A DNA stretch of 64,000 nt. It comes from an uncultured Clostridia bacterium (lineage in GTDB: Bacteria; Bacillota; Clostridia; Christensenellales; UBA1242). The stretch lies in contig CALWEW010000001.1 of NCBI GenBank assembly GCA_944377415.1, positions 35,604 through 99,603 on the forward strand, read 5' to 3'. Each line of letters starts with the position of its first letter. Within the stretch, counting starts at the first letter, position 1. Positions 1-40,308 of the stretch are shown one piece after another. The position numbers and the translations under genes were made by a program. The notes beneath the pieces are model-generated. The model had not been told where the DNA came from and did not search any database. It saw only the letters and a program-made list of their open reading frames with translations.

Positions 1-3000
1 GCTAATTGAATTAAATTGCAAAGGAATATTTGTTTGATAATAATAGTAGTACCCCTGTGCACAATAGAACTGTGCAATCTCGTCTGAATAAGTCGAACCA
101 AAAGTACAGTCGTTTTGATTGAATGTCGCCTGTACTGTTTCAAGACGAGGATAGAAGTAGAATGAATATACACCATTTGTGTATTCACTCGCCCAATCAC
201 TAGATACCCAGTTAAGAGAGTCCGCTCCGTCTGGCGCAACTGTGCGAATATCAATATCTATCCTACCACCATGGTATTGTCCACTTGAAATAGGCGTATC
301 CTCATTAATGAGTTCAAAAATTCGCTCATACAAACAGGTTATCTCATATAGATAAATGTCTTGATAAGTTGAGTAATCATAACGCGCTGTGTCTGTATCC
401 TTTCCACTAGAAAGCGCAGCCGAAAGCGCCGAAGCAAACGAACCGTTTGTAGTCGTGCCCGTTGTGTAATTTGTGCCCATTGTCGCATTTACATCACGGG
501 TATTTAGTGTAAATGTTGTCGACTTGTCGCCATACGAAAGTTTAATTTCGTATTGCGTGTTTGTATTTGTTGCGAGCATTCCATATTCAAAGGCCTGTCC
601 GCCGTTGCGCAAAAGTGTATCATACGAAGTATACATATACGGGTTGCCCGCAACACCTGCGTACTCAGCATTTGTTGCATTACTTACAAGGTTTGTGTAG
701 TAGTCTTGCCCATCGACAGTAATATACTGCATGTCATACATGTCGACAAGGTCAGCAGTCATGTCATCATACATAAGTTCAGCACGAGGCGCAGTGTATT
801 GCTTTCTAATAGTCAAGCAATCGCTTGAAGTGCTTGTTTCACTCGCAATATAATTACGCGTAATTTGCGTGCGGGTCGAATTTACAAGTCCTGTACTGTT
901 GTTTATTGTGTAGAACGAGTTTTGTTCGTTCTCTCCCCCTGTTGCAGAAGGATTACCAGTCTGCACTACCGTAAATCTAAATGAAAGAGTGTTCGGCAAA
1001 CTGCTGTCCATAGCCTCAAAGAGTGCTTGTGTCGAGCCACTGTGATGAATTTCTACATACGCACGCTTGCTATCTTCGTCATAATGAATATCAAGCGTAG
1101 CGGTATTAGAATTCCATGTGAATGAGTTTCCGCCATTACCTGTACCGCTCGAACCACCATCACTTAAATTGTAATCAGTGTATCCAACTTGAACATTTAT
1201 ACGCTTGTCCGCAATCATAAGCGGGTCAGTCGTGTAAACATTATCAAGCCAAATGCGGTAGTAGTACCCATAATTAGAGTCTGCGATAATATAACCGTCT
1301 GTCGCACCCACACTAGAAGCCCCGACATAATCATTCGAGCCATCTTCGTTGAGAATTTCAATACTATTTAGCGTAGGCTCTGCAAACCTAATATAATGGT
1401 TAAATGTGAAATAGAATGCAGGAATTAACGAGTTAAAGTCAAGATATTCAAGAGTGAATGCGTTGCCAGAAATCGTATTTACAATTTCTTGCACAAGTTC
1501 TTCATTCACGCTGCCGTCATCGTTGATTACAAACGGCACATTCTCTCTTACCCAACGCTCGCCGTAAATCAGCGAATCATCGTAATACTGCGTACCGTCT
1601 TCGAGTTCGGATACTGGCATATTCTGGTTTACGACATTGTTGTTTACCCAGGTTTTAATCTTACAATAATATGTGATAGGCGTGTAAACTTTGTCTAGGT
1701 CAGCCCCCTGCACAGAGTTAGGGTTACTCAAAAGTTCGGAAAGCGTAAGTTTGTCAAGCGTAATATTTCTGCCGTAAAGTGTGCCGACTTGTCGTGAGTA
1801 ATCCCACTCGCCCGAGCCAATTATTCTATCCTCATAATCGTACAAAATGTACAGCGGAACGGCTTGTGAACTATTATACTCGTTGTCGCGAGTACCAATT
1901 ATCCAGTGCGCAAGGTATGTGCCGTCTTGCTCTTGTAATTCTGTCCAATTAGTGTTTGTCGCAGCGCGAGGGTCTTGCGTGTTGTATACCCACAATTCAA
2001 ACGCGTTGTTATAATTGTCAGTCTGCGTACTTGTAATTGTGTAGTACTGCCCATTTTCAATATCTTTGTTTTCTAATGGATATAAACTGTCATCAGTAAT
2101 GGCCTGTTGCTGACTATTTTGATGCTTACCAGACATTGTAATATAAGTGTATTCTACACCAACCGAAGTATCACTGTTTAAGTAGTATTGCGAGTTTAAG
2201 TCTTGCTCCTCAACCGAGCCCGCATCAAAGTTCGGACGCGTTGTAGATAAGTAGATATAAACTTTATAGGTCTTATTCGGCTCTAAATTCCAGTTTACGA
2301 TGTTGTCCGCCTGTACGAAACATGTCCTTCCGTCTACTTCGCTAACCCCGTTGTAGTTTTCAAGATAAAGATTAGTCATAATGTTCGGGTTGTTTTCAGG
2401 GTTAAAGTAAATTTCTTGCATGTCCGCAGATAAGAATTCCTCTTGTTCCTCTGGCGTTAGACTATCATACAAAATCTCGTCAGCAAACTGCCCATTAATT
2501 TCTTCAAACGCAATCAAGTTTATGTTATATGAACATTGCGTGTTCACTTCATAAGTAAACGGGTTTGGAGTTAAAGTCCAGTTGATTACATAATTCGAGT
2601 AGTTCGAACCTGTGTAACTCAAACGAGGGTCAAGAATAGGTGTAGGAAGCACAACATAGTGGCAAACCTCAACATTCAACATGTACGGGTCGCCCGTCGG
2701 GCTACTGTCACCGACTTCGTCACCGTTAAGTATCCAGAAAATGTGGTATACACCAGCGTACGGGTTTTCATCGAAAAGTCCGTGAATGTCGATTGTAATT
2801 TTCGCACGAGTTGTATCAGGAGTTGTCGTACTGCCTTGATAACAACGCTCGATTGTTACATCGGGGTTCTCGGGGTCGGTATAAATGCCGTCAAGCCCAA
2901 GATTTGAGTACGCAGGAATGTTATAAGTCAATGTCTGCGTACGGTCGTTGTCGTAGTTAAGTCCGTTATATAATCTTGCTTCAACTGTGATTGTTTCGGG

Positions 3001-11376: not shown

Positions 11377-11389
11377 AAAAGAACCCCCA

Positions 11390-11414
11390 TATTTGACACG
11401 ATTTGTGTCAAATA
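11390..11414. promoter_or_regulatory. Perfect palindrome just upstream of the RBS of the giant gene (operator or hairpin)
   Basis: TATTTGACAC-gattt-GTGTCAAATA, 10-bp perfect arms, 14 nt from the start codon. Confidence 0.45.
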
Positions 11415-11510
11415 AATTAGCAGTTAGTAATTTTTTCTTTCCACACAATGTTGAAATGTGGAAAACTTTCGGGCAAATTCGGGCAACAACAAAGAAGTTT
11501 TAAAGAATTT

Positions 11511-22333: not shown

Positions 22334-22367
22334 CGTTTTATTAATGGTTTTGCGTATACAAAAAAAC

Positions 22368-24080: not shown

Positions 24081-24102
24081 AGAAAAATATTAAAAAATTA
24101 GC

Positions 24103-24155: not shown

Positions 24156-24179
24156 CATAAAATTTGTAAATTCTGCAAA

Positions 24180-25854: not shown

Positions 25855-28800
25855 TTACGGTGTCGGTTCTGGCTCGGGTTCAGGTTCTGGCTCTGGCTCG
25901 GGTTCAGGTTCAGGTTCGACTGTTGGAGTTGTAACATTTTCGATTGTACCACTACCTGCCACCGCCACAACATCGCTAGCAACGCCATTTATAGTACCCG
26001 TAATCGTAATATTAGAAATCGTTCCATTATTCGTATTTGCAATAAAGCCGATTGAAGTACCTGTAAGCGTAGCATTCAATGTTCCGCCCGTAATGCTTCC
26101 GTCATTTATATACACTATTCCGCCCGAATTATCGCCTGCACCCGTTATGTTAAGCGTGCCTATATTAATAATTCCCGAAGCCGAATTTGTATGCGCAATC
26201 AATCCTGAATTATTTAGGTTTGCCGAATTTGTGTATGTTCCGTTTACTGTAAGAGTTCCATTATTTGTTACAACCAAAGCACCATTTATAGCGGCATTAA
26301 GGTTTGTAATATTAAGCGACAGTGTGCCACTGTTGGTGCCAACGAGTGAACTAAATGCATCTGCCGTCATTCCCGAAATCGTAACATTTACGGTCGATGC
26401 CCCAGCGATAGTATTTGTAATGCCAACAGGTGTTACGCCATCAGGAGTAATTACAGTAACATTTGTAATGTTTACATTAATAGTCTTTGCTTGCTCAAAT
26501 GCACCGATTACAAGAGCCGAATTGCTTGATACCGAAATAACCGCATTATTAATTGTAAGCGTTGTTCCGTCATCAAACTTTTGCGAAGTCGAACCGAATA
26601 CGCTTGTGCTACCGAGAACCATGCCGACATTTTCGACACCGCTAACATTATTGTTTGAAAGCGAAGTCGTAAAGTCGCCACTTCCCGTGCGTATAATAAG
26701 TCCGTTTGTTATAGTGTCGCAATCAAGAACAATGTTATTCAATGTTTCTAATGCTTTGTGTTCGAGGTCAAGAATATCGCCATTTACGGTTACATTATAT
26801 GTTCCGCCAGCCATTCTAGAGTATTCTATCACGCGTGAAAGTTGGTCAACTGTATCAATTAAGTACACTCCTCCAACATTCGATACCGATACGCCAAATG
26901 GTGTATTCGTGCCTACAACTTCGACAAATTCGCGAAGTTCATAAGCGTTTGTTCCGTCTACCGTTCTGCCTGTAAATGCCCAAATATCACTATCAAGAAC
27001 ACTTAAATCAGTCGGGTAATTAGTATAACAATTTACTGCATTCGCACCGAATGTCGCGCCGTTTGAAAGGGCGTTTTCTATATTTCCACTGTTTACAACT
27101 GCACCAGTTGTCGCATCAGTCATCACGAGTGTTGCGCTTCCTGAAATCGTGTCAGCAAGAATTACACTCGCAGTCGCTCCATTTAGTTTTAGGCTCGAAA
27201 TATCACCTGAAACATCAGTAAACAGAGTTGTAGAAATATTGTCGATTGAGAATGTATTTCCGTCAAGGTTTCCTGCAAACGCACGCGCGGTGTAGCCACT
27301 AGAAATTAGCGAGAAGTCAATGTCATTATTAAGAATATAGTACGAGTTGCCATTTTCAAGAGCCCACAGAAGTTGTCCAGCCGAGTTAATCACATAAGGC
27401 GAAGAAGCCGTACCATTTCCAGTGCTACTTAATGCCGAAACATCATCAAGCCAACTCAAATACGGCAAACCGTAGTTATAAGCGTTGTCCGTTGTGAATG
27501 CACTACCAAGCGCGAGTTTTTGGCTTGTGTCTGCCCCGCGTTGTGCAGATATACTAAATGCTGTAAAGTATTCATTATTTGAAAGAGTCATCGATGTATC
27601 ATAGTAAACGCCGTTTGCATTTGTCGCTCCACCGTTGCGGTTAGCGACTACGGAATTTACAACCGCAGAGCCTGTATAATCGCGAAGAACAACTGCGGTA
27701 TAACAGTTTTCATTGTAGAAGCCGAGCGAGTTTCCGCTTTCGTCTGCAACTCTGCCGACAAAGCCCGAAATATAGACATTTTGCGCAGAGTTATAGTTTA
27801 AAATACTGCCAACTGCGTAACTATCAATAAGAGTTAATCGCGTGTCTACATTATTACTCCAACCTACAAGCGCACCAGCATTTACCGCTCCGCCCGTGCC
27901 GAGCGAGTTTCCATCAAGGTCAACAGCACCGTAAATTCTCATATCCGCATTTACGGCACTACCGATAATTTGTCCCGAGTTAATGCCCGCAATTCCACCG
28001 ATATTTACTGAACCACTTTCGACACCCAAATCAATTTTACCTGTAACATAAACGCCAAATACTTTTGCGTTGCTTGTGAGATTTCCAACCGCAGCACCAA
28101 ATGTCGAGCCATCACCAATTTTTGTGGAAACATTGACATTAATCACTGCTCCCGAAAGAATTGAGCCACGGGTTTCACCGCTAACTTCGACATCACCGAG
28201 TGTTGCGAACAGTCCGTAATTTGTATTAGTCGCAGGAGTAAATCCGTCATATTCAAGAGTTTGATAAACGGCGTTTATCGTATTTCCACCTGCATTATAC
28301 CAGCCGTATAGCGTACGGTTAAGGTCAAGGTCTACTGGAGTTGTGAGCGAAGTCGTCTGCAAGTAGTAAAGGTAATTTTCCCCACTTGTGTCGATTAAAC
28401 TGTAAAAGTCAGAGTAAGATGAAATCGTAATAGGGGCGCGCTTTGTGTCGCCTGTAACAACTTTTTGTGAGTAAAGTGCCGCATACCTAGTCGGCGCAGC
28501 CGAGAATGACGACCATTCGGCAGTATCAAGACGAGCATAAGCATAAGTGCTACCAGTCGGGCGAACAAGTCCGTCATAAGTACGCGAAATAATGTTTACA
28601 CTCGTTGTGCCGACATTATTTGAATCGCGTGCCGTAAGCCCGAGATAAGTATCGCAGTAAACTGAAGTGTAGCCAAGAGTACCAGAGTAGACAGACAAAT
28701 CAATATTTGTAAATCGAGTATTGTTAAATATTGAAGCAATCGAATAACCCGTCTGCATTGTTCCGCCCGAAATCGTGCCAGCAATACCACCGAGCGCATG

Positions 28801-31800
28801 TGCGCCTGTGGCAACATCTATATTATAAGTACCATTTAATGTAATGTCGCCACTATTTACTATGCCAACAACTGTTCCGCCAGACATAGTACCGATAAAG
28901 CCACCAGCCGAGAATGAATTTGCCGAAATATTGAGTAAATCAAAGGTCAAATTACTTGCGCTGTCAACTTGTGTTAAGTCTATCTCGTTGCCGAGCCCGA
29001 TAAATCCGCCCGCAACAGTGTTTTGCTGTACATTATTTAGTGTAATTTCAAAGTTGCTTGCCGCGCTGTTTACGACAACCGAAGTCGCACTACCGATGAA
29101 CCCACCCACATAGTGCGAGATTGTCGAAAGGTTTGCAAGGTTGTATTCCACATTCATGTTACCTTCGACAAACACTCGCGAAATGCTCGTGTTTTCGCCT
29201 GTTGCCTGCCCAGCAAAACCGCCGACATTTGCTGTCGTTTCACGCGCAGAGTAGACATTGTCAGTTGCATTTATATCAATAGAAATATATGCATCAGTTA
29301 CCGAAGTTACTCCGTTTGCATCAGAGTAAACGCGACCAAACATTCCGCCAACATTATTTGAATTTGTTGTAATTCCATGATACGAGCCTTCAAGAGAAGC
29401 ATCACTTGTAATGTTTACGCGGTCAACTGTCGTGTTGCGTGCCACACCTATTAACCCACCGACATAAGTGGTAAGGTCTTCGCTTAAATTAGTTGAGATA
29501 TAAAGGTTTACAATATTTACATTTCGAATAGTTGCCCCGTCAGTTGCACCGAATAGCCCTACATTCATAGCCCCCGAACGAACAATTGGCACATTATATA
29601 ATGTGTGTCCATTACCGTTGAACGAGCCTGTGAAAGGCGCACTTGTCGAGCCTACTGGCGCAAGCGCAGTCGACTCCGCCAAAAAGTCAAGGTCAGTATT
29701 TAAAATGTATTCTTTGTCGGGGTGCCAGTACATAATTTTGTAATCAGCCACCGAATTTATATAAATCGTGTCAGGCACATCTTGAATGTCAATATCAGGC
29801 ATTCCGCCACTAGTATCAATGCTATAACCGTCCCATTGTCCAAAGATTACATCAAGGTTATTAATCATATAACCGCGAGTTTCACCTTCGGCAATGTTGA
29901 TATTTGCTTCCGAATTACCAACAGCACGCAGATTTATTACATTCTCGCCCGTCTGTTCGTCAATTACAGAATTGAGTACAACACGATTGTAAATTTGATT
30001 TACATAGAAGTTAATTGAATTTAGAAGTTGTGAGTATGGCTCGTCAGGGTCGCCCGCCCCCGTTGTATGAGTCGTGTAAATTAGGCTCGGGTCAACACAA
30101 TAACCAACCAACCCACCTTGCGCACCAGCGCGAACTTGAGTTTCGGCTTGGCTAATTTCGTAGTAGTAGTTATAGTCGCTAGCAAGATAGTTATTGAGTG
30201 CGACCACATAATCAAGTGTAGTCATAGCAGATACATTTGTGCCGAACGGGTTCGAAATTTCGGTTAAATTACCGCCTGCCGAGAAGTCGTCGATATAACC
30301 AACAATTCCACCTAGGTTTGCAGTTCTGTTGCCGTAAATACTACCTGTCGAGAATACTGCTCGAATGTCGCCACCGTACGCAATTCCTACAATACCGCCG
30401 ACATTCGCACCATTTGAATTACGCACGCGAACTTTACTTGACGAATAGTAAATCGCACCGCTAGCCCAGCCATCGCTGGTGTAACCTATGTTAATACCCG
30501 CAATTCCACCCGTACCTAGCGTGCTTTGTCCGTTATCAAATAGAACATTATTAACGGTTATGCTTTCGCCGTCAAGGTTAAGTGTCGTATCTTCACCAGT
30601 ATTTGCAGCATCAACAGCCTCTTGTACATCATCGGTGTAAACAACATTACTATATCTTATTACACCGTTGTTCTGCCCAACAAGTCCGCCCGCAAAGGTT
30701 ATACCGCGAATTGTTGTTTCGGTGTCGACTACCTTTTCGGCATAATTTAGAACGGTATGCACGCCTAATACGCCGACAACACCACCTGCAATTTTACCAA
30801 CAATGCTTGCCTGCCCAGTGCTGTAAATATAGTTTAGAGCCGCTTCGTTTGCATTTGTAGTCGTGTTGACCGTGTCAAATTGAGTAAGGTCAGCAATACC
30901 AAACACACCACCAGCAAAGCCGAGCACGCCGATATTATTTGCGGCAGCGCTACTTCCCGAGGCAGCAAGCAAGTCTGCGTTATATAGTAAGTTCGTGTCT
31001 GCGCGGTAGTTTGAAGTAACACCGACTTCGCTTGTAATATTGCTAGCGCGCGAAGTCCCAGAAATCAAGCCCACCGCACCGCCGACAGCATTATTACCGA
31101 TTACGCGCGAGTTCTGCCCAGTAATGTTAATATTATAGATATTACCATTTTCGACTACACCAGCAAGCGCGCCGACATAAGCAACTTGCGAACATGAAAC
31201 CGCAGTAACCGAGATGTTTAAATTTTTGATAGTTCCTGTGTGAACAGTTCCATCACTTGTTGTTTCACTAGTAACCGTGCCGAGTAGTCCATATCTCGAA
31301 ACGCTCGCATCGTTCACCGCAAGATTGAGATTTTCAAATGTAAAGCCGTTACCTTCGAACACACCCGCGTATGTTGCAAGAGGACTGTTTAGCGTAGCAG
31401 TCGAGGAAATGTCGCTCTGGTCAATATTGCGAGCAAGACGAATATCATCAGTAATTACATACGAAGTATTCGCAAAAGCCGAATTAAACTGTGCCGCTGT
31501 CGTAATTGCAACAGGGTTAAAGGAATAGTCCGTGCCATAAATCGTGTTTGTCGTCTTTACAAAGTACGGAACAAACTGCTCGGTGTAAACATACCTTACA
31601 ACCCCAGTGTCCTCGTCAACAGTTGTGTTCTCTTCGTCAAGGTTCATTCTCGGTGTTGCAATCAAACTTGCAGACACGAGTTTAGGGCCTAGATTCATTT
31701 GGTTACGCGAATTTAGATTTGTTGTGAAGCGGTCAGGCGTAAAGTAAAGGTTATCTGGAGTTGTAAATGTCCACACGCCCGTAAATTCACTACCATCACT

Positions 31801-34800
31801 ACCCTCTCGCGAGAAGGTGTACCCTTCAAACATTGAGTAACCCGAGTTGCCTAAAAATTGTTCAAGAGTTAATTCAGTCGCATCTTCAAGGCGAAGTGCA
31901 TTAGTACTAAATCCAGTATTTAAGAAATAACAGTTCACAATTCCATCAGGGTTTGCGTTATTGTTTTCAGTAGAAGAAGTGCTTTCAACACCGATAAACG
32001 GCATAGAAAGGCTAGTTACTCCCGACTCGCCTGTGTCTGATAGAACGGATACAGAGTAACAACGCTCAATTTCTCCGTTCTCCGAATTTGAGTACACAAA
32101 ACCACTTGCTTCAATTGCCCAAATTCGCATTGCCGAATAAGAATCAGAAATCGAACCGTAGTTTGCGTATACAAAGCCTGCTGTTCTCACACCCGAAAGT
32201 ATGAGCGCATCGCGAGTATTTGCTAAACTTGAAACTTGCGTATTTTGTCCGCTTTTAGCATTGTATTCAGTGTATGCACCACCAGTAAACGAGCCGAAAA
32301 TCGTAGCGCCGTATGCATTTTCAACGACAAGTCCAGCAGTTGCAACATTGTTTGCTGTCGAAGTTGCAACATTCGTAATCGTGCCACCTGTGTAGTAACT
32401 TGATGCTATTACACCCGAGTTTGACGACACAAGTCCAGCAAGTCTGCCGAAGCCCGTCAAGTTTACATATTCGACACGACTATTTGAAATTGCACCGCTC
32501 TCACTGTTTGTACCTACAAGACCCGCAATATAGAACGATGCTGTCGTATCTGTTGGCGTAGGAACTGTTATTCCACGAACGGCATTATTAGTCCAACCAT
32601 TTACGACACAGTTGTAAACTGTACCATTATTTACACCAGCGATTGCACCAAAGTTAAGTGAAGTCGTGCTTGACACCGTTTCAGGAAGTGTTAGACCGTC
32701 AGTATTAAGTGAAACGGTTAAGTTTTTGATTACCATATTTTCGCTAATCGTGTCAAAAAGTCCATAATTCGAAGATGACGAATAAAGCGTGCGCGGTAGA
32801 TAAATTGTATATCCGTTACCATTTAGACTTGCAATTTCAGTCGTGAGCGCTGTCCAGTTGCTTGTAATCGAAATATCGTTCATAAGGATATAGTCGATAC
32901 CCGATTCCATATTGAGTAAATCGCGCTCGGTGTAGACAGGTTGCGCATGCTCTTGCGAAGTCATTTGATAAAATTCAATAGTAAGTTCCGCAGTCGAAAA
33001 ACCACGAGCATTATTATCAATTTCGTTACGAGTAATTAACTTAAATTCGCCGTTTTCATAAGTATAATACAAGTCGTATCTTATTCGCGATGATGACGAA
33101 ACGCCATTACCTTCTATACGGTATCCCGTGTACCCATCGCCTCCAACATCACAGTAGAATCGATAGTTTGAGTCGAGCCACTCGCCTTCGCTTCCTGTCG
33201 TAATAGGCGCAAGTTGCGACCAGCCATAACTGCCGTTGCTGTCAGGCAAATAACCGTACCAACCTAAATAACGCTGACTGCCGATACCGTTTAGAGTATT
33301 AATCACTTCTAAAATGTGTTCACGAAGAGTGCTATTTGTCGGGTCAAAAGTAATAGCCGAAATAGTGTCGAGATTTTCGAGTGTCGCACCGTCAAAAATT
33401 CTCAAATCATACAATGAATCGCGAATGTACGGATAGCGAAGATTTGTCGATTGTGATGCACCGTTTACAAGCCCGTCTTGAATACTGCTGATATAGAAGT
33501 CAACAACCAAAAAGTCAAGTGTGCGAGTAACAGTATTAATTAGCCCCGACATATTCTGTCGCCCCGACAGAGTAACAGTTATTTCCGTACCTACGGGGGC
33601 GGTGCCTGTGTATAGGTAATATCTTCCGTTTTCGCTGACTATTGCGACATTATAACTATTTGTTACATCGGTTCCGCTACTGTCACGAGCAACTACCGAA
33701 AGAGAGTAATCCATGTATGACGAGCCGACAACGACATTCAATTCATTTGCATTTTGCTCTAATGTAGTCGTTCCTATTCTGTAACCCGTACCCGCGGCAA
33801 CATATGCAGTGTTAGTATTTGAATTGTAATTATCATACGAAAGCGAAAGTGTATCTTGCGTGTAAACCGTCATCGTAAGGCTTTCGGTATAAGTAGTGTC
33901 GCCTTGATAAATTGTAACCGTAACGGTAAATTGCGCGCCTACTGGTTGCGCTGACGACACAAGCGTGCGCACATAATAATTTCCGTCAAAAGTACCGTCA
34001 TAATTTGATACGCGGTAAAGGCTGATACCGCCCTCAATAATTTCGACACCTGTCTGCCAACTGTAATATGTCGCGATATCGTTTTCGTAGCGCAAAATTC
34101 TCTGGTCAAACATTACGCGCTCATTATTTGTAACCGCACTTGTAATCTCAATGCGGTCGTAATATGCGTAATCTGGCGAAACACGAATTTGTAGCAAACC
34201 ATACTGTCCTGCAATCATCGTGTTAGTTGGTAGCCCACCTGCTTGTTCAAGTTTCGAACCATTATTTACCGCATCACTGTAATGCGACATATCAATATGA
34301 TTTATACGCTGAGGCAAGAAAGTAAATTCAAGAGTTACAGTCATCGAATACACAAAGTCGCCATTTGTATCAGTGTACCCTATCGGGTCGCCATTCTCAT
34401 CAAGTGCCCAGAATGTTATTGTGTAAGTAGTCGCAGTTTTTAATTCGTTGCGCGCAAGATTTGTCAAACTTACGCTAAACGGAATAGTTAATCTATTTTC
34501 GCTTGCTGTATATTCGAGTGTTCCAAACGACACGCGAATATCGTTACTTTCGATGTCGTCTTCCGTGTTAATAGCATCGCTATCAGCACCGTTTAGGCGT
34601 AGAGAGTAGCCGATGTGGTCAAGCACATTGTCGCCTTCTTCAAAGTTATCAGTAATCAAGGTTACCGAACTTGTAAGGCTATCTCCCGCATAAACGCTTG
34701 TGTCATTTGCAATGCCTAGTCCTATTGACGAAGCCCCTTTATAAACAACGGTGTTATATACGAGCGCGCATTCAGTATTATCAATATCAATGCGGTATAC

Positions 34801-37800
34801 ACTCGCCGCCCCCGTTGCTTTTCCATTCTCGTCTAGCGTATAGAACGAAGCATCAAAGAAAGGTGAAACCGAAACCGTAAGCGCAGGTGTCGCGTTTTTA
34901 GCAACAAAAGTAATTGAAGAATCGCCCATTAAATAGTAGTAATATTCACCATTTTCGCCTTCTGTCCATTCCGCAAGTCCTAGTGAAATTATGCTAGAAT
35001 CGTCAACACTAAATCTTAACCCACCGCTAACGTTTCCAGCCGAAACAGCACTACCCTCGCTCAAATACTCAACGAATGCTTGTGAGTTTTCGCCATTTTT
35101 AATACGAATTTCGCTCAAAGGGTCAGTATTTTCTATTATGTTTTCAGGCGACATATCGCTGCCTGAATAAAGATTATATTCTTCGAACCCATTAATTACC
35201 GCGATTTGCACGAAGTCGCGAGCCGTAGTATTTTGACTACTTGTAATTGAAAGAATTACCGTACCCGTGCCAACAATGCGTAGGCTTGTTGTGCTGAATG
35301 TAGTACCAGCAACTACTTGAATTACGCTAGTATTTGACACACTAAACGCAACGCGCACATTCGCGGGGTCGAGTTCAGGGTCGCTGGCAAAGTCGAATAA
35401 ATCACTAAGTCGAATATCCTGCCCACTATTTGAATAGAATAGAACTAATTTTTTAGTGTCAAGAGTGTTTGAGGTGTAGATATTCTGCACACCACTAATA
35501 TTATTACCACTCACGCGCTCAAATGTTTTAGCCGATAGCATAATGCTATTTGGCACAATTCGAATGAACGCTTCCCCGTTTCGTAATAGGTGCGGATAGC
35601 CGTCATTAATCACACTAGCCTGCGCCCAAACCGAAACACTAAATCCGTTTTGCGCGTAATAATTTAAATTCAAAGCATCTGCGCTTGTCTTGTCAAGATA
35701 AATGATATTTGCATCGCTACTTGAAAGCGAACTTTCAGGGGTTACAAGAATTATAATTTTTTGCGTGCTTGTAATCAAGTTGCCCGAGCCTACTGCGCTT
35801 AAATCATTTGCGAGTTCGGCATAGACGGCATTTACACCAGTGTTGTTGTCCGTGCTACCTACAATCGCGCCGACATTAGCAGTCGCACCTGTGTCGGTCG
35901 AGTTTGTCGAAACGAAGCCACGAGCATAGGCATCAGCAATATTCACAGTACCCGATGAATTTCCAAGCAGTCCGCCTACATTAAGCACTCCGCTTGTACT
36001 GTCGCCCGAAACTGTGCCTGAAATGCCAATATTTGCAAACGACCTAGAAATGTTTACCACTGCCGAAGTCTGCGCAAAACCAACAATTCCACCAAGGTTT
36101 AGCGTAGAATTTTCGGCATCAACACTGCCTAAAATGTTCGGGTTGCTCTCGTCAATATTGTACCCTTGCGCAATGGCGTATTGAATACTTCCGCCTGTCA
36201 TAAGTCCTACAATACCGCCAACATTTCCACTTCCCGAAATTCCGCAGTTCGTAGACGAAAGCGCGTATACTTCATAAGCAACATTATTTATTGTTCCGCT
36301 TGAAACGCCCGCAATTCCGCCGAGCGAACCATTTGCTCTTAATACAGCAGACGACATTGACGAAACTATGCTACCTGCATTTTCACCTGCAATTCCGCCG
36401 AGCGTATTATTCGAATAACCACTTAAATCAAGCGTACCATCAGTACTAATTCCATAAGCACTAGCGCTTGTGGCATTTACACCGATTGCACTTCCTAAAA
36501 TTGCCTTTGTAATCGTGCTATTTAGGTTCGTGTCGCGATTCGCAATAGACACATTTGCTACAACTGAATTTGTATAATTTTCTGTTGCAGACGAGCCAAT
36601 TAGTCCAGCATTTTCACCAGCCAGCCCACCAAAATGCACTGGCATATCGTCGCTAGAAAGTCGAGCGGAAATAGATACAGTCATGTTATCAACTGTCGTG
36701 TTTGCACCGACATAACCAACTGCACCTAGATTAAAGTGCAAGTAATTTAGATTTGTCGAAGTATTGTTATAGTTGTATGTTACATTCGAGCAAGACACTG
36801 TTACATGGTCAAGCACACCAGAACGCGTTATTCCGCCCGAAACGGTCGAACTTAACTCGCCGACCAGCAGTCCATAATTATACGAGTGCGCAACATTAGG
36901 GTTTTCGTTATCAAGGTCAAGACGCGCAGTCGTTTGAATTATCGTATACGAATTAATATAGAAATTTACATACCGAATTTCACCCGTAACTACACCAAAA
37001 ATTCCGTAATACATGGTGTGCGCGGGGTCATCGTTCGGGTTTGTTTGAGTTAAATCTTTTCTCAAAGTCCAGCCGATTATACTTAAAGCCGTTCCCCCGT
37101 TTTCATCACAGCCCATCGAAGTAATTGTACCACTAAAAGGCGTAGTGCGGTTGCCGATAGGAGTCCAGTCAGGGTTGCGCGCAAGGTAATTACTCATGTC
37201 AATCGTGTTCATTAAGTAGTAATTACTGCGCAAACCTAATTCGCTCGCGCCAATGTTTGCAACATCTTCGGCATCATAAAGCCTAAACGGCACAGATTGT
37301 CCGTCAGCAACAGTGATTAAAATTCTGCGCATACTCGATGAGTCAGACGGGTTCTGCATTTGCGAAGTAAGTTCGTAAATAGTTGTAATATCTTGCGCCA
37401 AAATGTCTTGCGGAATTATAAACATGAACGCATAACCTGCCCGACTAGGCACAACCGAATACAAATTGTGCGATGCATCATATTCAAGCGTTGCGGTATC
37501 ACATTCGTACTGCGACATGTCCGCCGAGCGCGTTTCTACACGGTAGTAATCGTAAACAGTGCGGTTATTTTCACGGCGCCCCGTATCAATTCGAATTATA
37601 TTATTGCCGAGCGACCCTGTATAGTCAGTGCCTAAATATTCGGCATCAAATAAAATATATTCAACATTTTTGTTTGTTGCGTTTGATGGTTCAATCGTCA
37701 AGTTCAAATCGAAACTAGAATTTTCGTACAATTCAAAGTACAAGCCGTCAGTATCGTTGTCGGGTATACCATCGATTAGAATATCAGTTACGCGCGTAAT

Positions 37801-40308
37801 TTTAGTAATTGTTACATGTACTGTTTGAGTAAACACGATTCCGTTAATATCAGTAACAGACACTATGACATCAACCGAGATATAATTATCTGTACTACTC
37901 AAAGGTTGGGCGGTTATATTTATGCTTGCGCCCGCCGTGCTCGACAGCGTAAGTCTTGTTGACGAAGCAGGGTTTTTTGTCCATGTCGCGCTACTTGCCT
38001 TTACTTCTGATTCAGACGGATAAACACTAACTTCAAGTGTTGTCGTGTTGCGTTGCGTATCGTAATAAGACTGGTTACCAGTAGTCGATGCAAGCAATTC
38101 TACATTTGACTGGTTAACCGAGATTCGACTAATCGGCACAAATACATGAATTGTAAAATCTCGAGTAACAGTCGCGCGCTCAACTAGCCCACCCGCGCCT
38201 ATGCGGTAGTACGCAACGGACATTGTAAAGGTTACATCACCGCGCGACATTGTCTGTAATAAAATGCTTGTATTTCCTTGCGCGCGTGCATACGCGATAT
38301 CCTCGGCATTTGATGTGATATCAATACTCAAAACCGATGACGAAGCATTACTCGGGAATAGCGTGTTATTTAGATGTACACTCTGTCCTTGCGCAATAAA
38401 CGCGTAATCGAGAGTTTCGACATCGCTCCCACCGACATTAATTGTCGTATATGCGTAAGGTCCCAAATTCGAGCCCGAAATGTCAGAGCCTAGCGAAATC
38501 GCAAAGTTATTAAATGCCGTTAGAACGCGAACTGTAACCGTGCGCACTGCCCCACTCGCTGATTCAAGCGTAATAGTTGCACTGCCTGCCGAAGCGGCGG
38601 TTAATATAAATCGTGTAGGCGATTGCGCCGATTTTTCAACAGTTACAATATTTGGATTGCTTGAACGCACCGAAACGGTATCCGCATTTGCAGTCGCAGG
38701 TGTTACGGTAAAGTCGACAGTTTTAGTCGAATAAGTCGACAATCCGTATTCGTCATATTCAAGCACAATGGCATTTAGTGTCGGGTCAACAAAAGCATCG
38801 CTAACAGTTATATCAGTTACACCCTGTTGCAAGTTAATCACAAGCCTGCGTGTCAGCGTATCACCAAAAAGTGCAGTATCTGTTGCTGTTACATCAAGCG
38901 TGATTGTTCCCGTTCCCCCACTGCTGCGGAAGTACAATGTGTCGCCAGCATGGAAAGTGTATTCACCATTAAAGATTTCACCGTTTATGCGTAAGTTTTG
39001 TATTAAGGCGGCATCGCTTTCATTTAGTACGACATTAAGGCTCATGTTGTTGTAGACATTACTGTATGGAGTTGTTCCAAAAACGACTTGCGCCCCCGAA
39101 GTTGCACCGCTCTCACGGTAGCGGTCGAATACATCAAGGTAATATATGTCAGTTGTGCTGTCGCCATTTATAATAATCGCAGTTGGCACATCAACGATAC
39201 GAATATCAAGCGGAAGCACCATTTCGCGAGCATCACTCACGCCTGCAACTTTGACAACGATTTCAAGGCGTGTCCATTCGTCAAGCGATTCAAGACCTGT
39301 TATTGTGATTTGATTTGTATTTGCATTTACTTCTGCATAAATGTAATTGTCAATCAAGCCATTAGGGTCGCGAATTTCAACAGTTACACTCTCATAATTC
39401 GGCACCGCCACATTTACACGCGCGGTATTTGATGACGAGTTTTTCACAAGTTCGAGAGAAGTAATCACATTCGCAACCGAACCAGAATAAAGATATGTAT
39501 TTTCTGCTGTGAGTGCAGTATATACGCGCACATCTTCCATCACGACAGTAAGCGCAGCGAGTTCTTCATCTGTATAATTTTGAATATCGCGCGGGTATGC
39601 CGTAATATCTACCGCACTGCCAACTGAAGTATCAAGAATAAAAGGTTCTTTAGAGTTGTATAATTCCCCGTTGATATTGAATACATAATCAGGTACTGTC
39701 GCATTTGCGGGAGTAAAATCAAAAAGCGTGCGCGGGTCAAGAATGTATTCCTGCCCTGCTGGTATTCCAAAACTCGTCATATCAGCAGAGAGTGTCGCGC
39801 CCGTCGGCTTCACAATTACTTCGACAATCAGTGTCGCTGCAACTTCATTCGTTTCGATACTAAACGCAGTTACTCGCGCCTCCGTTGTCGCAGAAAGCCC
39901 TGTGATAATTACTTCGGTACCTGCGGAATTTTGCAAATCAATGCGCAGCAAAGTATCATTATAATTCCACACAACATCACCGAGCAAATCGCCAGACAGC
40001 CCTGTAACTTCGGCGGTTACAAGAGCTGAATCCGAGCCAAGAGGCGCTTCTGCATTCGGGGCGTTCGGGTCGGTGGCTTGCTCATCATCAGCGTTGCCAT
40101 CGATTGTGAGTGTTAGATAATATGTACCGTCAACTTCGGTTACACTTTCTCCCGAAAGGGTAATGCGCAAGTTATCAAGCGGATTACCACACCCCGCGAG
40201 TATTCCCAGTGTCGCAAGCAATATTGCCAACACGCCAAAAAACATTGCGCCTATACGCGCGCGCGTGCTAGTTTTGTTTTCATTCAAAAAAGTTTTGTGT
40301 ACTCCCAT
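25855..40308 (-). CDS. 4817-aa giant surface lipoprotein with Big_2/Ig-like domains and multiple GLUG/Zmp-N-terminal-like modules
   Basis: Lipobox LGILAGC-GN. Big_2-like segments (VDFTVTPATANADTVSVRSSNPNIVTV; LTIEPSNATNKNVEY). About 7 modules of type P-x-x-I...L...Y-x-L-x-x-DID...F-x-G-x-F-x-GNG-x-T(I/L). Many VGGLxG/GGIAG GLUG motifs. No HExxH found. Confidence 0.92.
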   Translation of the reverse strand: MGVHKTFLNENKTSTRARIGAMFFGVLAILLATLGILAGCGNPLDNLRITLSGESVTEVDGTYYLTLTIDGNADDEQATDPNAPNAEAPLGSDSALVTAEVTGLSGDLLGDVVWNYNDTLLRIDLQNSAGTEVIITGLSATTEARVTAFSIETNEVAATLIVEVIVKPTGATLSADMTSFGIPAGQEYILDPRTLFDFTPANATVPDYVFNINGELYNSKEPFILDTSVGSAVDITAYPRDIQNYTDEELAALTVVMEDVRVYTALTAENTYLYSGSVANVITSLELVKNSSSNTARVNVAVPNYESVTVEIRDPNGLIDNYIYAEVNANTNQITITGLESLDEWTRLEIVVKVAGVSDAREMVLPLDIRIVDVPTAIIINGDSTTDIYYLDVFDRYRESGATSGAQVVFGTTPYSNVYNNMSLNVVLNESDAALIQNLRINGEIFNGEYTFHAGDTLYFRSSGGTGTITLDVTATDTALFGDTLTRRLVINLQQGVTDITVSDAFVDPTLNAIVLEYDEYGLSTYSTKTVDFTVTPATANADTVSVRSSNPNIVTVEKSAQSPTRFILTAASAGSATITLESASGAVRTVTVRVLTAFNNFAISLGSDISGSNLGPYAYTTINVGGSDVETLDYAFIAQGQSVHLNNTLFPSNASSSVLSIDITSNAEDIAYARAQGNTSILLQTMSRGDVTFTMSVAYYRIGAGGLVERATVTRDFTIHVFVPISRISVNQSNVELLASTTGNQSYYDTQRNTTTLEVSVYPSESEVKASSATWTKNPASSTRLTLSSTAGASINITAQPLSSTDNYISVDVIVSVTDINGIVFTQTVHVTITKITRVTDILIDGIPDNDTDGLYFELYENSSFDLNLTIEPSNATNKNVEYILFDAEYLGTDYTGSLGNNIIRIDTGRRENNRTVYDYYRVETRSADMSQYECDTATLEYDASHNLYSVVPSRAGYAFMFIIPQDILAQDITTIYELTSQMQNPSDSSSMRRILITVADGQSVPFRLYDAEDVANIGASELGLRSNYYLMNTIDMSNYLARNPDWTPIGNRTTPFSGTITSMGCDENGGTALSIIGWTLRKDLTQTNPNDDPAHTMYYGIFGVVTGEIRYVNFYINSYTIIQTTARLDLDNENPNVAHSYNYGLLVGELSSTVSGGITRSGVLDHVTVSCSNVTYNYNNTSTNLNYLHFNLGAVGYVGANTTVDNMTVSISARLSSDDMPVHFGGLAGENAGLIGSSATENYTNSVVANVSIANRDTNLNSTITKAILGSAIGVNATSASAYGISTDGTLDLSGYSNNTLGGIAGENAGSIVSSMSSAVLRANGSLGGIAGVSSGTINNVAYEVYALSSTNCGISGSGNVGGIVGLMTGGSIQYAIAQGYNIDESNPNILGSVDAENSTLNLGGIVGFAQTSAVVNISRSFANIGISGTVSGDSTSGVLNVGGLLGNSSGTVNIADAYARGFVSTNSTDTGATANVGAIVGSTDNNTGVNAVYAELANDLSAVGSGNLITSTQKIIILVTPESSLSSSDANIIYLDKTSADALNLNYYAQNGFSVSVWAQASVINDGYPHLLRNGEAFIRIVPNSIMLSAKTFERVSGNNISGVQNIYTSNTLDTKKLVLFYSNSGQDIRLSDLFDFASDPELDPANVRVAFSVSNTSVIQVVAGTTFSTTSLRIVGTGTVILSITSSQNTTARDFVQIAVINGFEEYNLYSGSDMSPENIIENTDPLSEIRIKNGENSQAFVEYLSEGSAVSAGNVSGGLRFSVDDSSIISLGLAEWTEGENGEYYYYLMGDSSITFVAKNATPALTVSVSPFFDASFYTLDENGKATGAASVYRIDIDNTECALVYNTVVYKGASSIGLGIANDTSVYAGDSLTSSVTLITDNFEEGDNVLDHIGYSLRLNGADSDAINTEDDIESNDIRVSFGTLEYTASENRLTIPFSVSLTNLARNELKTATTYTITFWALDENGDPIGYTDTNGDFVYSMTVTLEFTFLPQRINHIDMSHYSDAVNNGSKLEQAGGLPTNTMIAGQYGLLQIRVSPDYAYYDRIEITSAVTNNERVMFDQRILRYENDIATYYSWQTGVEIIEGGISLYRVSNYDGTFDGNYYVRTLVSSAQPVGAQFTVTVTIYQGDTTYTESLTMTVYTQDTLSLSYDNYNSNTNTAYVAAGTGYRIGTTTLEQNANELNVVVGSSYMDYSLSVVARDSSGTDVTNSYNVAIVSENGRYYLYTGTAPVGTEITVTLSGRQNMSGLINTVTRTLDFLVVDFYISSIQDGLVNGASQSTNLRYPYIRDSLYDLRIFDGATLENLDTISAITFDPTNSTLREHILEVINTLNGIGSQRYLGWYGYLPDSNGSYGWSQLAPITTGSEGEWLDSNYRFYCDVGGDGYTGYRIEGNGVSSSSRIRYDLYYTYENGEFKLITRNEIDNNARGFSTAELTIEFYQMTSQEHAQPVYTERDLLNMESGIDYILMNDISITSNWTALTTEIASLNGNGYTIYLPRTLYSSSSNYGLFDTISENMVIKNLTVSLNTDGLTLPETVSSTTSLNFGAIAGVNNGTVYNCVVNGWTNNAVRGITVPTPTDTTASFYIAGLVGTNSESGAISNSRVEYVNLTGFGRLAGLVSSNSGVIASSYYTGGTITNVATSTANNVATAGLVVENAYGATIFGSFTGGAYTEYNAKSGQNTQVSSLANTRDALILSGVRTAGFVYANYGSISDSYSAMRIWAIEASGFVYSNSENGEIERCYSVSVLSDTGESGVTSLSMPFIGVESTSSTENNNANPDGIVNCYFLNTGFSTNALRLEDATELTLEQFLGNSGYSMFEGYTFSREGSDGSEFTGVWTFTTPDNLYFTPDRFTTNLNSRNQMNLGPKLVSASLIATPRMNLDEENTTVDEDTGVVRYVYTEQFVPYFVKTTNTIYGTDYSFNPVAITTAAQFNSAFANTSYVITDDIRLARNIDQSDISSTATLNSPLATYAGVFEGNGFTFENLNLAVNDASVSRYGLLGTVTSETTSDGTVHTGTIKNLNISVTAVSCSQVAYVGALAGVVENGNIYNINITGQNSRVIGNNAVGGAVGLISGTSRASNITSEVGVTSNYRADTNLLYNADLLAASGSSAAANNIGVLGFAGGVFGIADLTQFDTVNTTTNANEAALNYIYSTGQASIVGKIAGGVVGVLGVHTVLNYAEKVVDTETTIRGITFAGGLVGQNNGVIRYSNVVYTDDVQEAVDAANTGEDTTLNLDGESITVNNVLFDNGQSTLGTGGIAGINIGYTSDGWASGAIYYSSSKVRVRNSNGANVGGIVGIAYGGDIRAVFSTGSIYGNRTANLGGIVGYIDDFSAGGNLTEISNPFGTNVSAMTTLDYVVALNNYLASDYNYYYEISQAETQVRAGAQGGLVGYCVDPSLIYTTHTTGAGDPDEPYSQLLNSINFYVNQIYNRVVLNSVIDEQTGENVINLRAVGNSEANINIAEGETRGYMINNLDVIFGQWDGYSIDTSGGMPDIDIQDVPDTIYINSVADYKIMYWHPDKEYILNTDLDFLAESTALAPVGSTSAPFTGSFNGNGHTLYNVPIVRSGAMNVGLFGATDGATIRNVNIVNLYISTNLSEDLTTYVGGLIGVARNTTVDRVNITSDASLEGSYHGITTNSNNVGGMFGRVYSDANGVTSVTDAYISIDINATDNVYSARETTANVGGFAGQATGENTSISRVFVEGNMNVEYNLANLSTISHYVGGFIGSATSVVVNSAASNFEITLNNVQQNTVAGGFIGLGNEIDLTQVDSASNLTFDLLNISANSFSAGGFIGTMSGGTVVGIVNSGDITLNGTYNIDVATGAHALGGIAGTISGGTMQTGYSIASIFNNTRFTNIDLSVYSGTLGYTSVYCDTYLGLTARDSNNVGTTSVNIISRTYDGLVRPTGSTYAYARLDTAEWSSFSAAPTRYAALYSQKVVTGDTKRAPITISSYSDFYSLIDTSGENYLYYLQTTSLTTPVDLDLNRTLYGWYNAGGNTINAVYQTLEYDGFTPATNTNYGLFATLGDVEVSGETRGSILSGAVINVNVSTKIGDGSTFGAAVGNLTSNAKVFGVYVTGKIDLGVESGSVNIGGIAGINSGQIIGSAVNADMRIYGAVDLDGNSLGTGGAVNAGALVGWSNNVDTRLTLIDSYAVGSILNYNSAQNVYISGFVGRVADESGNSLGFYNENCYTAVVLRDYTGSAVVNSVVANRNGGATNANGVYYDTSMTLSNNEYFTAFSISAQRGADTSQKLALGSAFTTDNAYNYGLPYLSWLDDVSALSSTGNGTASSPYVINSAGQLLWALENGNSYYILNNDIDFSLISSGYTARAFAGNLDGNTFSIDNISTTLFTDVSGDISSLKLNGATASVILADTISGSATLVMTDATTGAVVNSGNIENALSNGATFGANAVNCYTNYPTDLSVLDSDIWAFTGRTVDGTNAYELREFVEVVGTNTPFGVSVSNVGGVYLIDTVDQLSRVIEYSRMAGGTYNVTVNGDILDLEHKALETLNNIVLDCDTITNGLIIRTGSGDFTTSLSNNNVSGVENVGMVLGSTSVFGSTSQKFDDGTTLTINNAVISVSSNSALVIGAFEQAKTINVNITNVTVITPDGVTPVGITNTIAGASTVNVTISGMTADAFSSLVGTNSGTLSLNITNLNAAINGALVVTNNGTLTVNGTYTNSANLNNSGLIAHTNSASGIINIGTLNITGAGDNSGGIVYINDGSITGGTLNATLTGTSIGFIANTNNGTISNITITGTINGVASDVVAVAGSGTIENVTTPTVEPEPEPEPEPEPEPEPEPTP
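25864..25917 (-). repeat. (Glu-Pro)9 tandem repeat at the extreme C-terminus
   Basis: Encodes VEPEPEPEPEPEPEPEPEPTP*. Confidence 0.95.

Follow-up and report, generated by a model that had tools for sequence, protein, structure and literature searches.

We have identified three giant genes, g1, g2 and g3, on the minus strand of a 64,000-nucleotide stretch (the window) of the genome of an uncultured gut Clostridia bacterium. According to the open reading frame (ORF) list, the three ORFs are intact and together take up 33.4 kb, or 52% of the window, with g1 and g2 adjacent, as the original prediction had described (Table 1). The window covers the N-terminal ~3,790 aa of g1, and the remaining 2.4 kb lie past the window start, giving a protein of 4,582 aa in total (C1:33231-46979 in the genome). 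The longest g1 frame (1..11448) begins with TTG, and the likely real start is the ATG at 11376, which has a GGGGG Shine-Dalgarno sequence ahead of it. The true start of g2 is possibly the ATG at 19276. Internal stops are absent from orthologues of all three genes in nearly all genomes of the genus. The host genome measures a mere 1.26 Mb (96% completeness), and its genus has genomes of about 1.1 Mb (0.8-1.4 Mb across the 17 assemblies searched).

Table 1. Features of the giant-gene locus (window positions), with the basis of each assignment
Feature	Position	Strand	Basis and remarks
g1	1..11376	-	ORF list and translation; predicted TM-anchored giant surface protein
g1 seven contiguous FN3-like beta-sandwich domains (aa 66-798)	9055..11253	-	AF2, Foldseek, own HMM, hhalign
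g1 hydrophobic signal-anchor helix ITIIVVVALVLVLGIIGLIFLL	11293..11358	-	Read from sequence; K3 and K6 before it
g2-g1 spacer	11377..11758	-	382 nt; contents limited to an AATTCAA heptamer repeat and, at the g2 stop, a weak hairpin
g2	11759..19300	-	2,513 aa; predicted lipoprotein with Big_2, FN3-like stalk and C-terminal beta-helix head
g2 GLUG-type right-handed beta-helix head (about aa 1994-2458), cap LTGGFDGNGHTI	11927..13321	-	AF2, Foldseek
g2 FN3-like stalk, nine detectable domains (aa 144-1178)	15767..18871	-	Own HMM, hhalign
g2 Big_2 (aa 67-127)	18920..19102	-	Pfam PF02368, 53.9 bits vs cut-off 22.8
g2 lipobox F-V-A-C (Cys31)	19208..19219	-	Read from sequence
Promoter-like TTGACT-18-TATAAT, upstream of g2	19491-19462	-	Consensus scan only
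Terminator-like hairpin, 3' of DegV	19618..19643	-	Consensus scan only
Five genes separating g3 from g2	19637..25229	.	Pfam scan and ORF list
g3	25855..40308	-	4,817 aa; predicted lipoprotein with Ig/Big_2-like regions, several GLUG-type beta-helix modules and (EP)n tail
g3 (EP)n low-complexity C-terminal tail	25858..25920	-	Translation, TRF
g3 GLUG-type module, cap FTGSFNGNGHTL (aa ~3518-3850)	28759..29757	-	hhalign 95.8%, 291 columns; Pfam
g3 GLUG-type module, cap YAGVFEGNGFTF (aa ~2936-3398)	30115..31503	-	hhalign 84.8%; motif scan
g3 GLUG-type beta-helix module 1 (aa ~1227-1472)	35893..36630	-	hhalign vs g2 head 89.7%; GGxxG cluster
g3 Big_2-like domain (aa 530-595)	38524..38721	-	hhalign vs g2 Big_2 profile
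g3 lipobox L-A-G-C (Cys40)	40189..40200	-	Read from sequence; K/R-rich n-region ahead

Ahead of g2, consensus scans placed a strong terminator together with a promoter-like site of its own. The genes between g3 and g2 encode DegV, GlyRS, a 237-aa ORF, a peroxiredoxin (on the plus strand, opposite to the giants) and a 349-aa lysine-rich membrane protein; neither the 237-aa nor the 349-aa ORF had a Pfam match. A TraX-family gene is found 1.9 kb upstream of g3, and downstream of g1 are a convergent 154-aa ORF and an M23-like peptidase, with no same-strand small immunity-like ORF. The Pfam scan found no assembly, chaperone, secretion or sorting genes at the locus, and no T4SS gene within the window. 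The shared orientation of g1, g2 and g3 is uninformative, because GC skew is negative over the entire window and the flanking housekeeping genes for DegV and GlyRS occupy the same strand.

All three giants are very acidic and nearly lysine-free. Serine, threonine, asparagine and tyrosine make up 35-36% of each, in keeping with the enrichment that had been predicted, and lysine accounts for 1.0-1.8% versus a background of 7.3%. Arginine is only mildly low (about 3% versus 4%), so the earlier description of the proteins as poor in lysine and arginine mainly holds for lysine. The GC content of the giant genes is 42%, as opposed to 28-40% over non-giant stretches in 2-kb windows; for bases 40309-64000 it is 36.3%. 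Horizontal transfer is not favored as the source of the higher GC, given that the orthologues show synteny and do not occur outside the genus, and that lysine depletion itself raises GC. Roughly 20 lysine-poor giant proteins are scattered over many loci of the host genome, where lysine-poor ORFs of at least 800 aa hold 8.2% of the bases. Among them is a 5,009-aa paralogue of g3, located on contig C3 and 25% identical to it over about 3,000 aa. The wide scatter of such proteins speaks against one three-component system.

On the basis of their N-terminal sequences, all three proteins are predicted to be membrane-tethered at that end, by the one TM anchor and two lipoboxes originally proposed. 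The g1 N-terminus reads MSKAVKITIIVVVALVLVLGIIGLIFLLMPKDRP and contains an uncleaved-looking signal-anchor helix, with neither a lipobox nor an obvious AxA cleavage site; the helix is kept in orthologues, both in the consensus and in the divergent G003 homologue. Position -3 of the g2 lipobox is occupied by an unusual Phe, and its Cys31, along with Pro25, is invariant among 13 sequences. An x-G-C-G lipobox occurs in 8/8 g3 orthologues. Lgt and LspA are encoded in the host genome, as are PBPs, and no sortase was found there. Motif scans of g1, g2 and g3 detected no LPxTG, as expected from the first reading of the DNA, and no HExxH.

Pfam was run on the whole proteins and on 600-1,000-aa pieces (E<=1), and the only matches at or above cut-off across the three giants were Big_2, one fn3 and a marginal Glug. 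No Pfam family reached cut-off in g1, and its profile found no PDB sequence match. AF2 modeling of g1 aa 60-679 gave six beta-sandwiches in 620 aa (pLDDT 89.4), with Foldseek matches to gp130, the leptin receptor, fibronectin FN3 arrays and GhpA fragments at E values down to 7e-14. Single-sequence phmmer repeat detection was abandoned because the repeats are too diverged, and was replaced by our own FN3 HMM. Built from the AF2-defined g1 domains, this HMM recovered 10 domains in g1, nine in g2 and none in g3, and found the FN3-type domain in no other protein of the host genome. Three of the g1 copies lie beyond the contiguous array, at aa 1007-1108, 1201-1317 and 1795-1889. No recognizable binding head was seen in g1, for which the structure model covers aa 60-679.

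The FN3-like stalks predicted to be common to two of the giants are therefore those of g1 and g2, and BLASTP also aligned g1 138-397 with g2 329-582 (25% identity, E 4e-6). The single Pfam fn3 match above cut-off is at g2 aa 1081-1149 (27.5 bits), and more diverged FN3-like beads of g2 probably continue to about aa 1950. PDB chains with Big_2 matched the g2 profile at E values down to 9e-11; these and weak FN3 matches were all that the PDB sequence search returned. The g2 head had no Pfam Glug match and is assigned by fold. Its AF2 model (pLDDT 78.8, pTM 0.81) best matched PDB 3n6z in Foldseek (E 7.5e-6, probability 1.0, TM 0.54 on the target), followed by the N-domains of the IgA1 proteases 7uvk and 6xja, such that its nearest solved structures are non-catalytic protease parts or unannotated proteins.

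In g3, whose beta-helix modules alternate with Ig-like regions, three segments are profile-homologous to the g2 head (hhalign probability 85-96%), and Pfam Glug PF07581 matched aa 3301-4000 in three stretches at 20.5 bits, exactly the cut-off. The GLUG-type modules foreseen in two of the giants are thus recovered in g2 and g3 by fold and profile homology, as is a Big_2 domain in both; the g3 copy is under Pfam cut-offs and was identified by hhalign (probability 91.6%, E 8e-7). Tandem stalk domains were demonstrated for g1 and g2, and a single Big_2-like domain for g3. A PDB sequence search with g3 found no match, and the sole trace of M26 in Pfam was Peptidase_M26_N at 12.3 bits.

All three families are restricted to one genus of gut Clostridia. 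Orthologues of g1 occur in 13 genus genomes (4,203-4,612 aa) and those of g3 in 12 other genus genomes (4,661-5,276 aa). For g2 there are twelve full-length orthologues (32-57% identity), of 2,488-2,571 aa apart from one truncated-looking copy of 2,330 aa; a g2 search at E<=1e-30 retrieved 27 representatives that match in their C-terminal region, nearly all of 2,200-2,600 aa and three of them shorter. Orthologue lengths stay within about 5-10% despite identities of 31-60%. The bodies of the giants are 35-60% identical, and conservation is lowest at the extreme C-terminal ends: over the last ~200 aa, identity is 10-18% in g1 (with >40% gaps), 23% in g2 and 26-35% in g3, whose orthologues finish in P/E/T-rich tails of different sequence. 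The giants also evolve faster than their neighbors, at 57-61% identity to the closest relative compared with 83% for GlyRS and 81% for DegV. Literature searches on giant proteins in Christensenellales and on GLUG adhesins did not turn up these families, and nothing was found on UBA4651, the isolate name of one relative.

We consider it somewhat more probable than not that g1, g2 and g3 are separate, sortase-independent, fibrillar adhesin-like surface proteins with an N-terminal anchor and a C-terminal head, judging from sequence features and structure models. Fibrillar adhesins, which in Gram-positives include SasG, Embp and CshA (PMC9210967; bioRxiv 10.1101/2020.12.07.414375), are recognized by their length, stalk, adhesive region and anchor (PMC9210967). 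The giants are 4,582, 2,513 and 4,817 aa long, with at least 10 FN3-like domains in tandem in g1 and at least nine in g2; the g2 beta-helix head and the g3 modules are candidate adhesive regions, and a surface anchor of a type other than LPxTG is predicted. The original idea of bead stalks bearing GLUG-type modules survives to the extent that the architecture resembles that of fibrillar adhesins, with the module distal in g2 and present several times in g3. Following Sec export, the giants would remain membrane-tethered, as fibers that traverse the peptidoglycan and hold their C-termini well away from the cell. The reach would be some 60-70 nm for g2 and, should g1 consist of beads along its whole length, at most about 150 nm for that protein. 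The distal beta-helix heads and variable tips would then bind a ligand, for which mucus or dietary glycan, the host surface or another microbe are candidates. The acidic, lysine-poor make-up may hold the fibers extended and resist Lys-directed gut proteases.

The original prediction had gone further and joined the three proteins into one contact apparatus, and the synteny of relatives bears directly on this. The order g2 then g1, in adjacency, is found in 9/17 genus genomes, including a divergent pair in G003, with junctions of 20-470 nt in orthologous loci (20 nt in L003/L008). The two are separated in 4/17, a sub-clade (G008, G010, G013 and G015) in which they lie on different contigs, contig breaks interrupt the arrangement in 3/17, and both are missing from G014. 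In four loci (L005, L017, L019 and L020), g2 occurs without g1 within 10 kb. Linkage of g3 to g2 and g1 is seen in 2/13 genomes having g3, namely this one and its closest relative; in a 3-contig genome, a contig boundary and a distance of at least about 246 kb separate g3 from them. The three-part machine is not supported, because only g2 and g1 make a conserved gene pair: g3 lies five genes from g2, beyond the terminator and promoter-like site, and is single and unlinked in relatives other than the closest one, as are g2 and g1 in the one sub-clade. This is the pattern that the original prediction had itself named as refuting. What survives of the apparatus is the g2-g1 pair. This conserved pair, of common descent, is probably regulated together, and its products may serve as one short and one long fiber, although its persistence inside one genus could be plain inheritance without functional coupling. 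g3 stands apart as a member of a second family and is nearby only in the host species and its sister.

A stronger version of the pairing, which we regard as unlikely, is that g2 and g1 assemble sideways through their homologous membrane-proximal FN3 arrays into a composite long-reach organelle, possibly with g3 as a third part. The conserved order, the confinement of the FN3-type domain to these two proteins and the same genus-restricted distribution of their families, down to the absence of both in one genome, are consistent with it. However, the genomes that carry the two genes on different contigs, the loci with g2 alone, the nearly universal lack of linkage of g3 and the absence of chaperone, assembly and secretion genes at the locus all argue for fibers that are separate.

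Another reading is that the giants form a protective or spacing coat, an acidic, protease-resistant brush against phages, immune factors or neighboring cells that involves no specific adhesion. The extreme lysine depletion and net negative charge, the abundance of such proteins in the genome, the strict length conservation and the lack of a recognizable binding head in g1 would all suit a brush. Conserved heads would be needless for a pure spacer, however, and distal beta-helix modules with hypervariable tips are typical of ligand-binding adhesins, which makes a coat quite unlikely. We also consider, as a speculative idea that is probably wrong, that the g2-g1 pair is a dedicated two-fiber organelle for docking, in a genus whose cells live obligately attached as epibionts or on particles, in which a short, beta-helix-headed fiber and a long, swappable-tip fiber, both of fixed length, are joined via their FN3 arrays. 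Under this same speculation, the swappable g1 tip would in some species be a DnaJ-like CxxCxGxG zinc knuckle, and the commitment of ~8% of the genome to lysine-free giants would be the mark of a life that depends on a partner, with the pair as the Firmicute equivalent of episymbiont attachment systems.

A role as cell-cell contact proteins for DNA or protein transfer (mating-pair stabilizers) appears very unlikely. It is suggested by the g3 paralogue on the other contig, which neighbors a type IV secretion-like ATPase cluster and is ~18 kb from a P-loop ATPase of VirB4/TraG type (AAA_10, P-loop_TraG), and by the TraX-family gene near g3, but g3 is just 25% identical to that paralogue, the window holds no T4SS gene, and TraX-family acyltransferases are common outside conjugation. 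It is hardly credible that the giants are surface-displayed enzymes (beta-helix glycan lyases or IgA-type proteases) or contact-dependent polymorphic toxins with variable C-terminal warheads: the g2 head matched polygalacturonases and a fucoidan lyase weakly (Foldseek probability 0.1 or less), the IgA1 protease part among its best matches is the non-catalytic N-domain, and IgA-protease identity is rejected on the missing HExxH and Peptidase_M26 catalytic domain, just as toxin identity, despite the hypervariable tips, is rejected on the lack of any toxin family in Pfam and of a same-strand immunity-like ORF after g1.

If the adhesin-like reading is true, a genus with very small genomes spends about 3% of its DNA on these three genes and about 8% on lysine-poor giants overall, and surface contact would be central to its lifestyle. 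The families are invisible to domain databases, so that gut metagenome annotation probably undercounts such proteins. Their sortase-free, N-anchored, C-headed layout and fixed lengths would provide handles for finding a ligand or partner, and perhaps for enrichment or culture.

Several known systems share parts of this design. The modules resemble BACOVA_03286 (3n6z) and the M26 IgA1 protease N-domain (6xja, 7uvk) in their right-handed beta-helix, GG[ILV]xG rungs and FxGxFDGNGHTI-type cap. Unlike the M26 IgA1 proteases (ZmpA/B/C), the giants have no M26 catalytic domain and no HExxH, and unlike in GLUG proteins, the module ends a 2,000-aa stalk (g2) or recurs several times (g3). Periscope proteins likewise have a long stalk that sets the distance of the functional tip from the cell surface, and their length varies through near-identical tandem repeats (PMC9704523); such variation is ruled out here, as TRF found no DNA repeats in the stalks and orthologue lengths are steady. 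Aureispira GhpA (9fly, 9flv, 9g8b, 9flu) is also a giant of tandem Ig/FN3-like domains with fragments among the top g1 stalk matches, a likeness that concerns only the generic fold of the beads; no evidence was found of hook assembly, predation or a type IX/VI partner system as in GhpA.

Giant1-5 of Apilactobacillus kunkeei are extracellular proteins of 3,000-8,000 aa that carry a beta-solenoid module at one end, encoded by consecutive genes in a 1.5 Mb genome (PMC12863079). Our giants have no detectable sequence relationship to them and are alike in that a small genome devotes several per cent of its DNA to lineage-restricted proteins with no dedicated transporter nearby. Giant1-5 have an N-terminal solenoid, C-terminal SH3b-like attachment and mostly alpha-helical rods (PMC12863079), whereas the proteins described here have a predicted N-terminal lipid/TM anchor and beta-sandwich beads, and conserved pairing holds for just two of the three genes. 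Fibrillar adhesins usually have a C-terminal LPxTG/sortase anchor and an N-terminal head, the reverse of the N-terminal lipid/TM anchor and C-terminal head predicted here, and the stalk domains of the giants are so diverged that Pfam detects almost none. The two nonetheless share great length, a tandem Ig/FN3-like rod, a distinct distal module, surface attachment (predicted for the giants) and fast evolution. The giants open no new mechanistic category; they are new families of an already known kind of protein.

The three giant minus-strand genes g1, g2 and g3, which encode putative surface proteins, are listed below with neighboring features. The source genome, of which the window is C1:35604-99603, comprises 1.26 Mb in 52 contigs and is 96% complete. 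Read in the genome, g1 exceeds the window, ending at C1:33231 and encoding 4,582 aa counted from the ATG. The three genes occupy 33.4 kb (52%) of the window; their full lengths add up to 35.7 kb, which is 2.8% of the genome. Their co-orientation calls for no particular explanation, since the whole window has negative GC skew and DegV and GlyRS, housekeeping genes located between g2 and g3, are encoded on the same strand.

Giant genes and neighboring features of the window
Feature	Coordinates	Strand	Basis or remarks
g1	1..11448 from TTG; likely real start ATG 11376	-	ORF list; GGGGG Shine-Dalgarno ahead of ATG
AATTCAA heptamer, x4.6	11722-11753		GAATTTT on coding strand; directly 3' of g2 stop, within 382-nt g2-g1 spacer
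g2	11759..19300	-	ORF list
237-aa ORF	22536-23249		Between g3 and GlyRS; no Pfam match
349-aa protein	24180-25229		Between g3 and GlyRS; lysine-rich, TM segments, no Pfam match
g3	25855..40308	-	ORF list
TraX-family membrane protein gene	42224-43210	opposite to giants	PF05857, E 4e-40; lies 1.9 kb upstream of g3; two genes for FAD oxidoreductases and one HTH regulator gene come after it
tRNA-Pro	48508-48584		AGG (A34) anticodon, unusual for bacteria; called by ARAGORN and Rfam

Between g3 and GlyRS, ORFs of 217 and 254 aa, likewise without Pfam match, are present in the closest relative; the counterpart of the 237-aa ORF shows 51% identity.

The original prediction treated the three genes as one locus for a possible multi-component attachment apparatus. 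Among 41 related genomes searched, g1 and g2 were found only in the window's own genus (17 genomes, 0.9-1.4 Mb), as were full-length g3 orthologues. By their titles, the related contigs belong to gut MAGs (human, deer and others) of uncultured Clostridia or 'Christensenella sp.'. One clear g2 orthologue (CAVEBU010000008.1, locus L017) is on a contig titled 'Alistipes finegoldii', probably a mislabelled or mis-binned MAG, since all other carriers are labelled uncultured Clostridia or Christensenella MAG or plain 'bacterium'.

The synteny expected in relatives held in part. Adjacency of g2 and g1 was seen in 9 of the 17 genomes, eight with the order kept (G000, G001, G002, G004, G006, G009, G011, G016) and one in divergent form with a 10,058-aa ORF as partner (G003), but the two genes occupy separate contigs in four (G008, G010, G013, G015) and g3 is generally unlinked. 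A contig break falls exactly between g2 and g1 in three genomes (G005, G007, G012), and G014 has neither gene. Both states were confirmed at independent loci, and the junction measures 20-470 nt. Proximity of g3 to g2/g1 is limited to this genome and its closest relative (G016, loci L001/L007); in G006, assembled in 3 contigs, g3 is on another contig at least ~246 kb away, and in G015 it still adjoins GlyRS, with g2 and g1 located elsewhere. In the window, g3 and g2 have five genes between them, with a strong terminator-like hairpin after DegV and a good promoter-like site ahead of g2. On these genomic comparisons, the grouping of all three genes is thus a juxtaposition particular to the lineage rather than one conserved locus; what is conserved is the g2-g1 pair, of which g3 is independent.

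The same type of bead, a common descent and distribution and, for the most part, a common position link g2 and g1, which are probably co-regulated and may cooperate. That they build a composite organelle is unlikely: their pairing speaks for it, the genomes that keep them apart against it. Variants of the pair were also observed. In G003 (C7:~182000-217600; L034, L035) a g2-like gene of 2,496 aa precedes the 10,058-aa frame, a single open frame whose N-terminus is g1-like (27% identity) and shares the MSK...TM start. Genes of g1 type are duplicated in G011 (C1, C18), G015 (C4:27900-57400) and G008 (C1, C4); the two copies in G015 are ~7 kb apart on one contig, and the second in G011 is at a contig start.

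The giant proteins are strongly acidic, and S+T+N+Y make up ~35-36% of residues. They were predicted to be poor in lysine and arginine, which holds for lysine (1.0-1.8% vs 7.3% in the genome's ordinary ORFs), but arginine is only mildly low. The lysine depletion entails a loss of AAA/AAG codons, and this loss probably contributes to the raised GC of the giant genes (40-45% vs 28-40% in 2-kb windows of non-giant stretches). About 20 ORFs of 800 aa or longer that are lysine-poor (0.9-2%), rich in S/T/N/Y and equipped with hydrophobic segments at the N-terminus account for 8.2% of genome bases. Other large, N-terminally hydrophobic ORFs with K-rich C-terminal tails contain 4-7% lysine, and surface proteins of this genome seem to fall into two compositional classes. 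A protective brush, to which such a make-up might be suited, is slightly less probable still than the organelle.

Among the lysine-poor giants is a 5,009-aa g3 paralogue (25% identity) ~18 kb from a VirB4/TraG-type ATPase. Contact proteins serving a T4SS, a role this neighbor might suggest for the giants, are improbable.

In g2 the Pfam matches above cut-off were Big_2 (residues 67-127) and a single fn3. In g3 Glug scored exactly at the cut-off, and for g1 no family came up to it; profile searches of PDB sequences gave no match for g1 or g3. Structures were predicted for g1 aa 60-679 and the last 620 aa of g2. The g1 piece forms six beta-sandwich domains (pLDDT 89.4) resembling tandem FN3 arrays of gp130, leptin receptor, fibronectin 7-10, LAR and Aureispira grappling-hook protein fragments. 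An HMM built from these domains identified 10 copies in g1, extending to aa 1889, and 9 within aa 144-1178 of g2, with which hhalign concurs; g3 and the genome's other giant ORFs gave none. The g2 piece, or head, is a predicted right-handed beta-helix with a cap (pLDDT 78.8, pTM 0.81), to which three g3 segments are profile-homologous (probabilities 85-96%); the Big_2 domain of g2 likewise has a Big_2-like homologue in g3. Pfam hits, models, HMM and profile comparisons thus agree with the predicted modules: FN3-like in g1 and g2, Big_2 and GLUG-type beta-helix in g2 and g3. The closest structural match of the head is PDB 3n6z (Bacteroides 'putative IgA1 protease', E 7.5e-6), followed by IgA1 proteases 7uvk and 6xja; HExxH is absent from all three giants, so they are not M26 proteases. 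Enzymes or toxins are the least credible reading.

All three proteins appear N-terminally anchored, as predicted. At the g1 N-terminus, which orthologues keep, MSKAVK precedes a hydrophobic helix of 22 residues; neither a lipobox nor an obvious cleavage site is seen in its sequence. A lipobox F-V-A-C occurs in g2 (Cys31 and Pro25 invariant in 13 sequences) and L-A-G-C (Cys40) in g3, after a K/R-rich n-region; x-G-C-G is kept in 8/8 g3 orthologues fetched. The genome encodes Lgt, LspA and two PBP-type transpeptidases. The anchoring thus has support at the level of sequence, and the organism has a cell wall. No sortase was found in the genome, and a motif scan of g1-g3 confirmed the absence of LPxTG.

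Orthologues are collinear (g1, 4,203-4,612 aa; g2, 2,488-2,571 aa, with one seemingly truncated 2,330-aa copy; g3, 4,661-5,276 aa), and length is maintained across 27-65% identity. At E<=1e-30 the g2 head profile retrieved 27 representative proteins; in nearly all of them the length is 2,200-2,600 aa and the match is C-terminal. At the DNA level the stalks lack tandem repeats. Identity to the closest relative is 57-61% for the giants vs 83% for GlyRS and 81% for DegV; by this sequence measure, evolution of the giants is much faster than that of the neighboring genes. The extreme C-terminus, or tip, is the least conserved part of each. The last ~65 aa of g1 (C1:33231-33430, outside the window), presumably extracellular, carry CSNCGGTG, CPNCDGKG, CTSCGGSG and CSVCSGKG, which follow the DnaJ-type zinc-knuckle pattern CxxCxGxG; Pfam matches are weak (DUF7895, E 0.0024; DnaJ_CXXCXGXG, E 0.07). 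These motifs are kept in the G002, G010 and G015 orthologues and missing from seven others.

We propose that the giants, with predicted export via Sec, would be tethered by lipid or a TM helix, and that the beta-helix heads or variable tips at their C-termini could reach tens to ~150 nm from the membrane and bind a putative ligand. The acidic, lysine-poor make-up may confer extension and resistance to Lys-directed proteases. Literature searches found no published description of these families, which are new and database-dark, although the kind of protein is already known and no new kind of system is involved. In anatomy they agree with the fibrillar adhesins, an operational class defined by great length, stalk, distal module and anchor (PMC9210967), with polarity opposite to that of classic sortase-anchored Gram-positive adhesins. 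As regards lifestyle, the Apilactobacillus kunkeei Giant1-5 cluster (PMC12863079) is the closest analogue so far described, although fold, polarity and anchor all differ.
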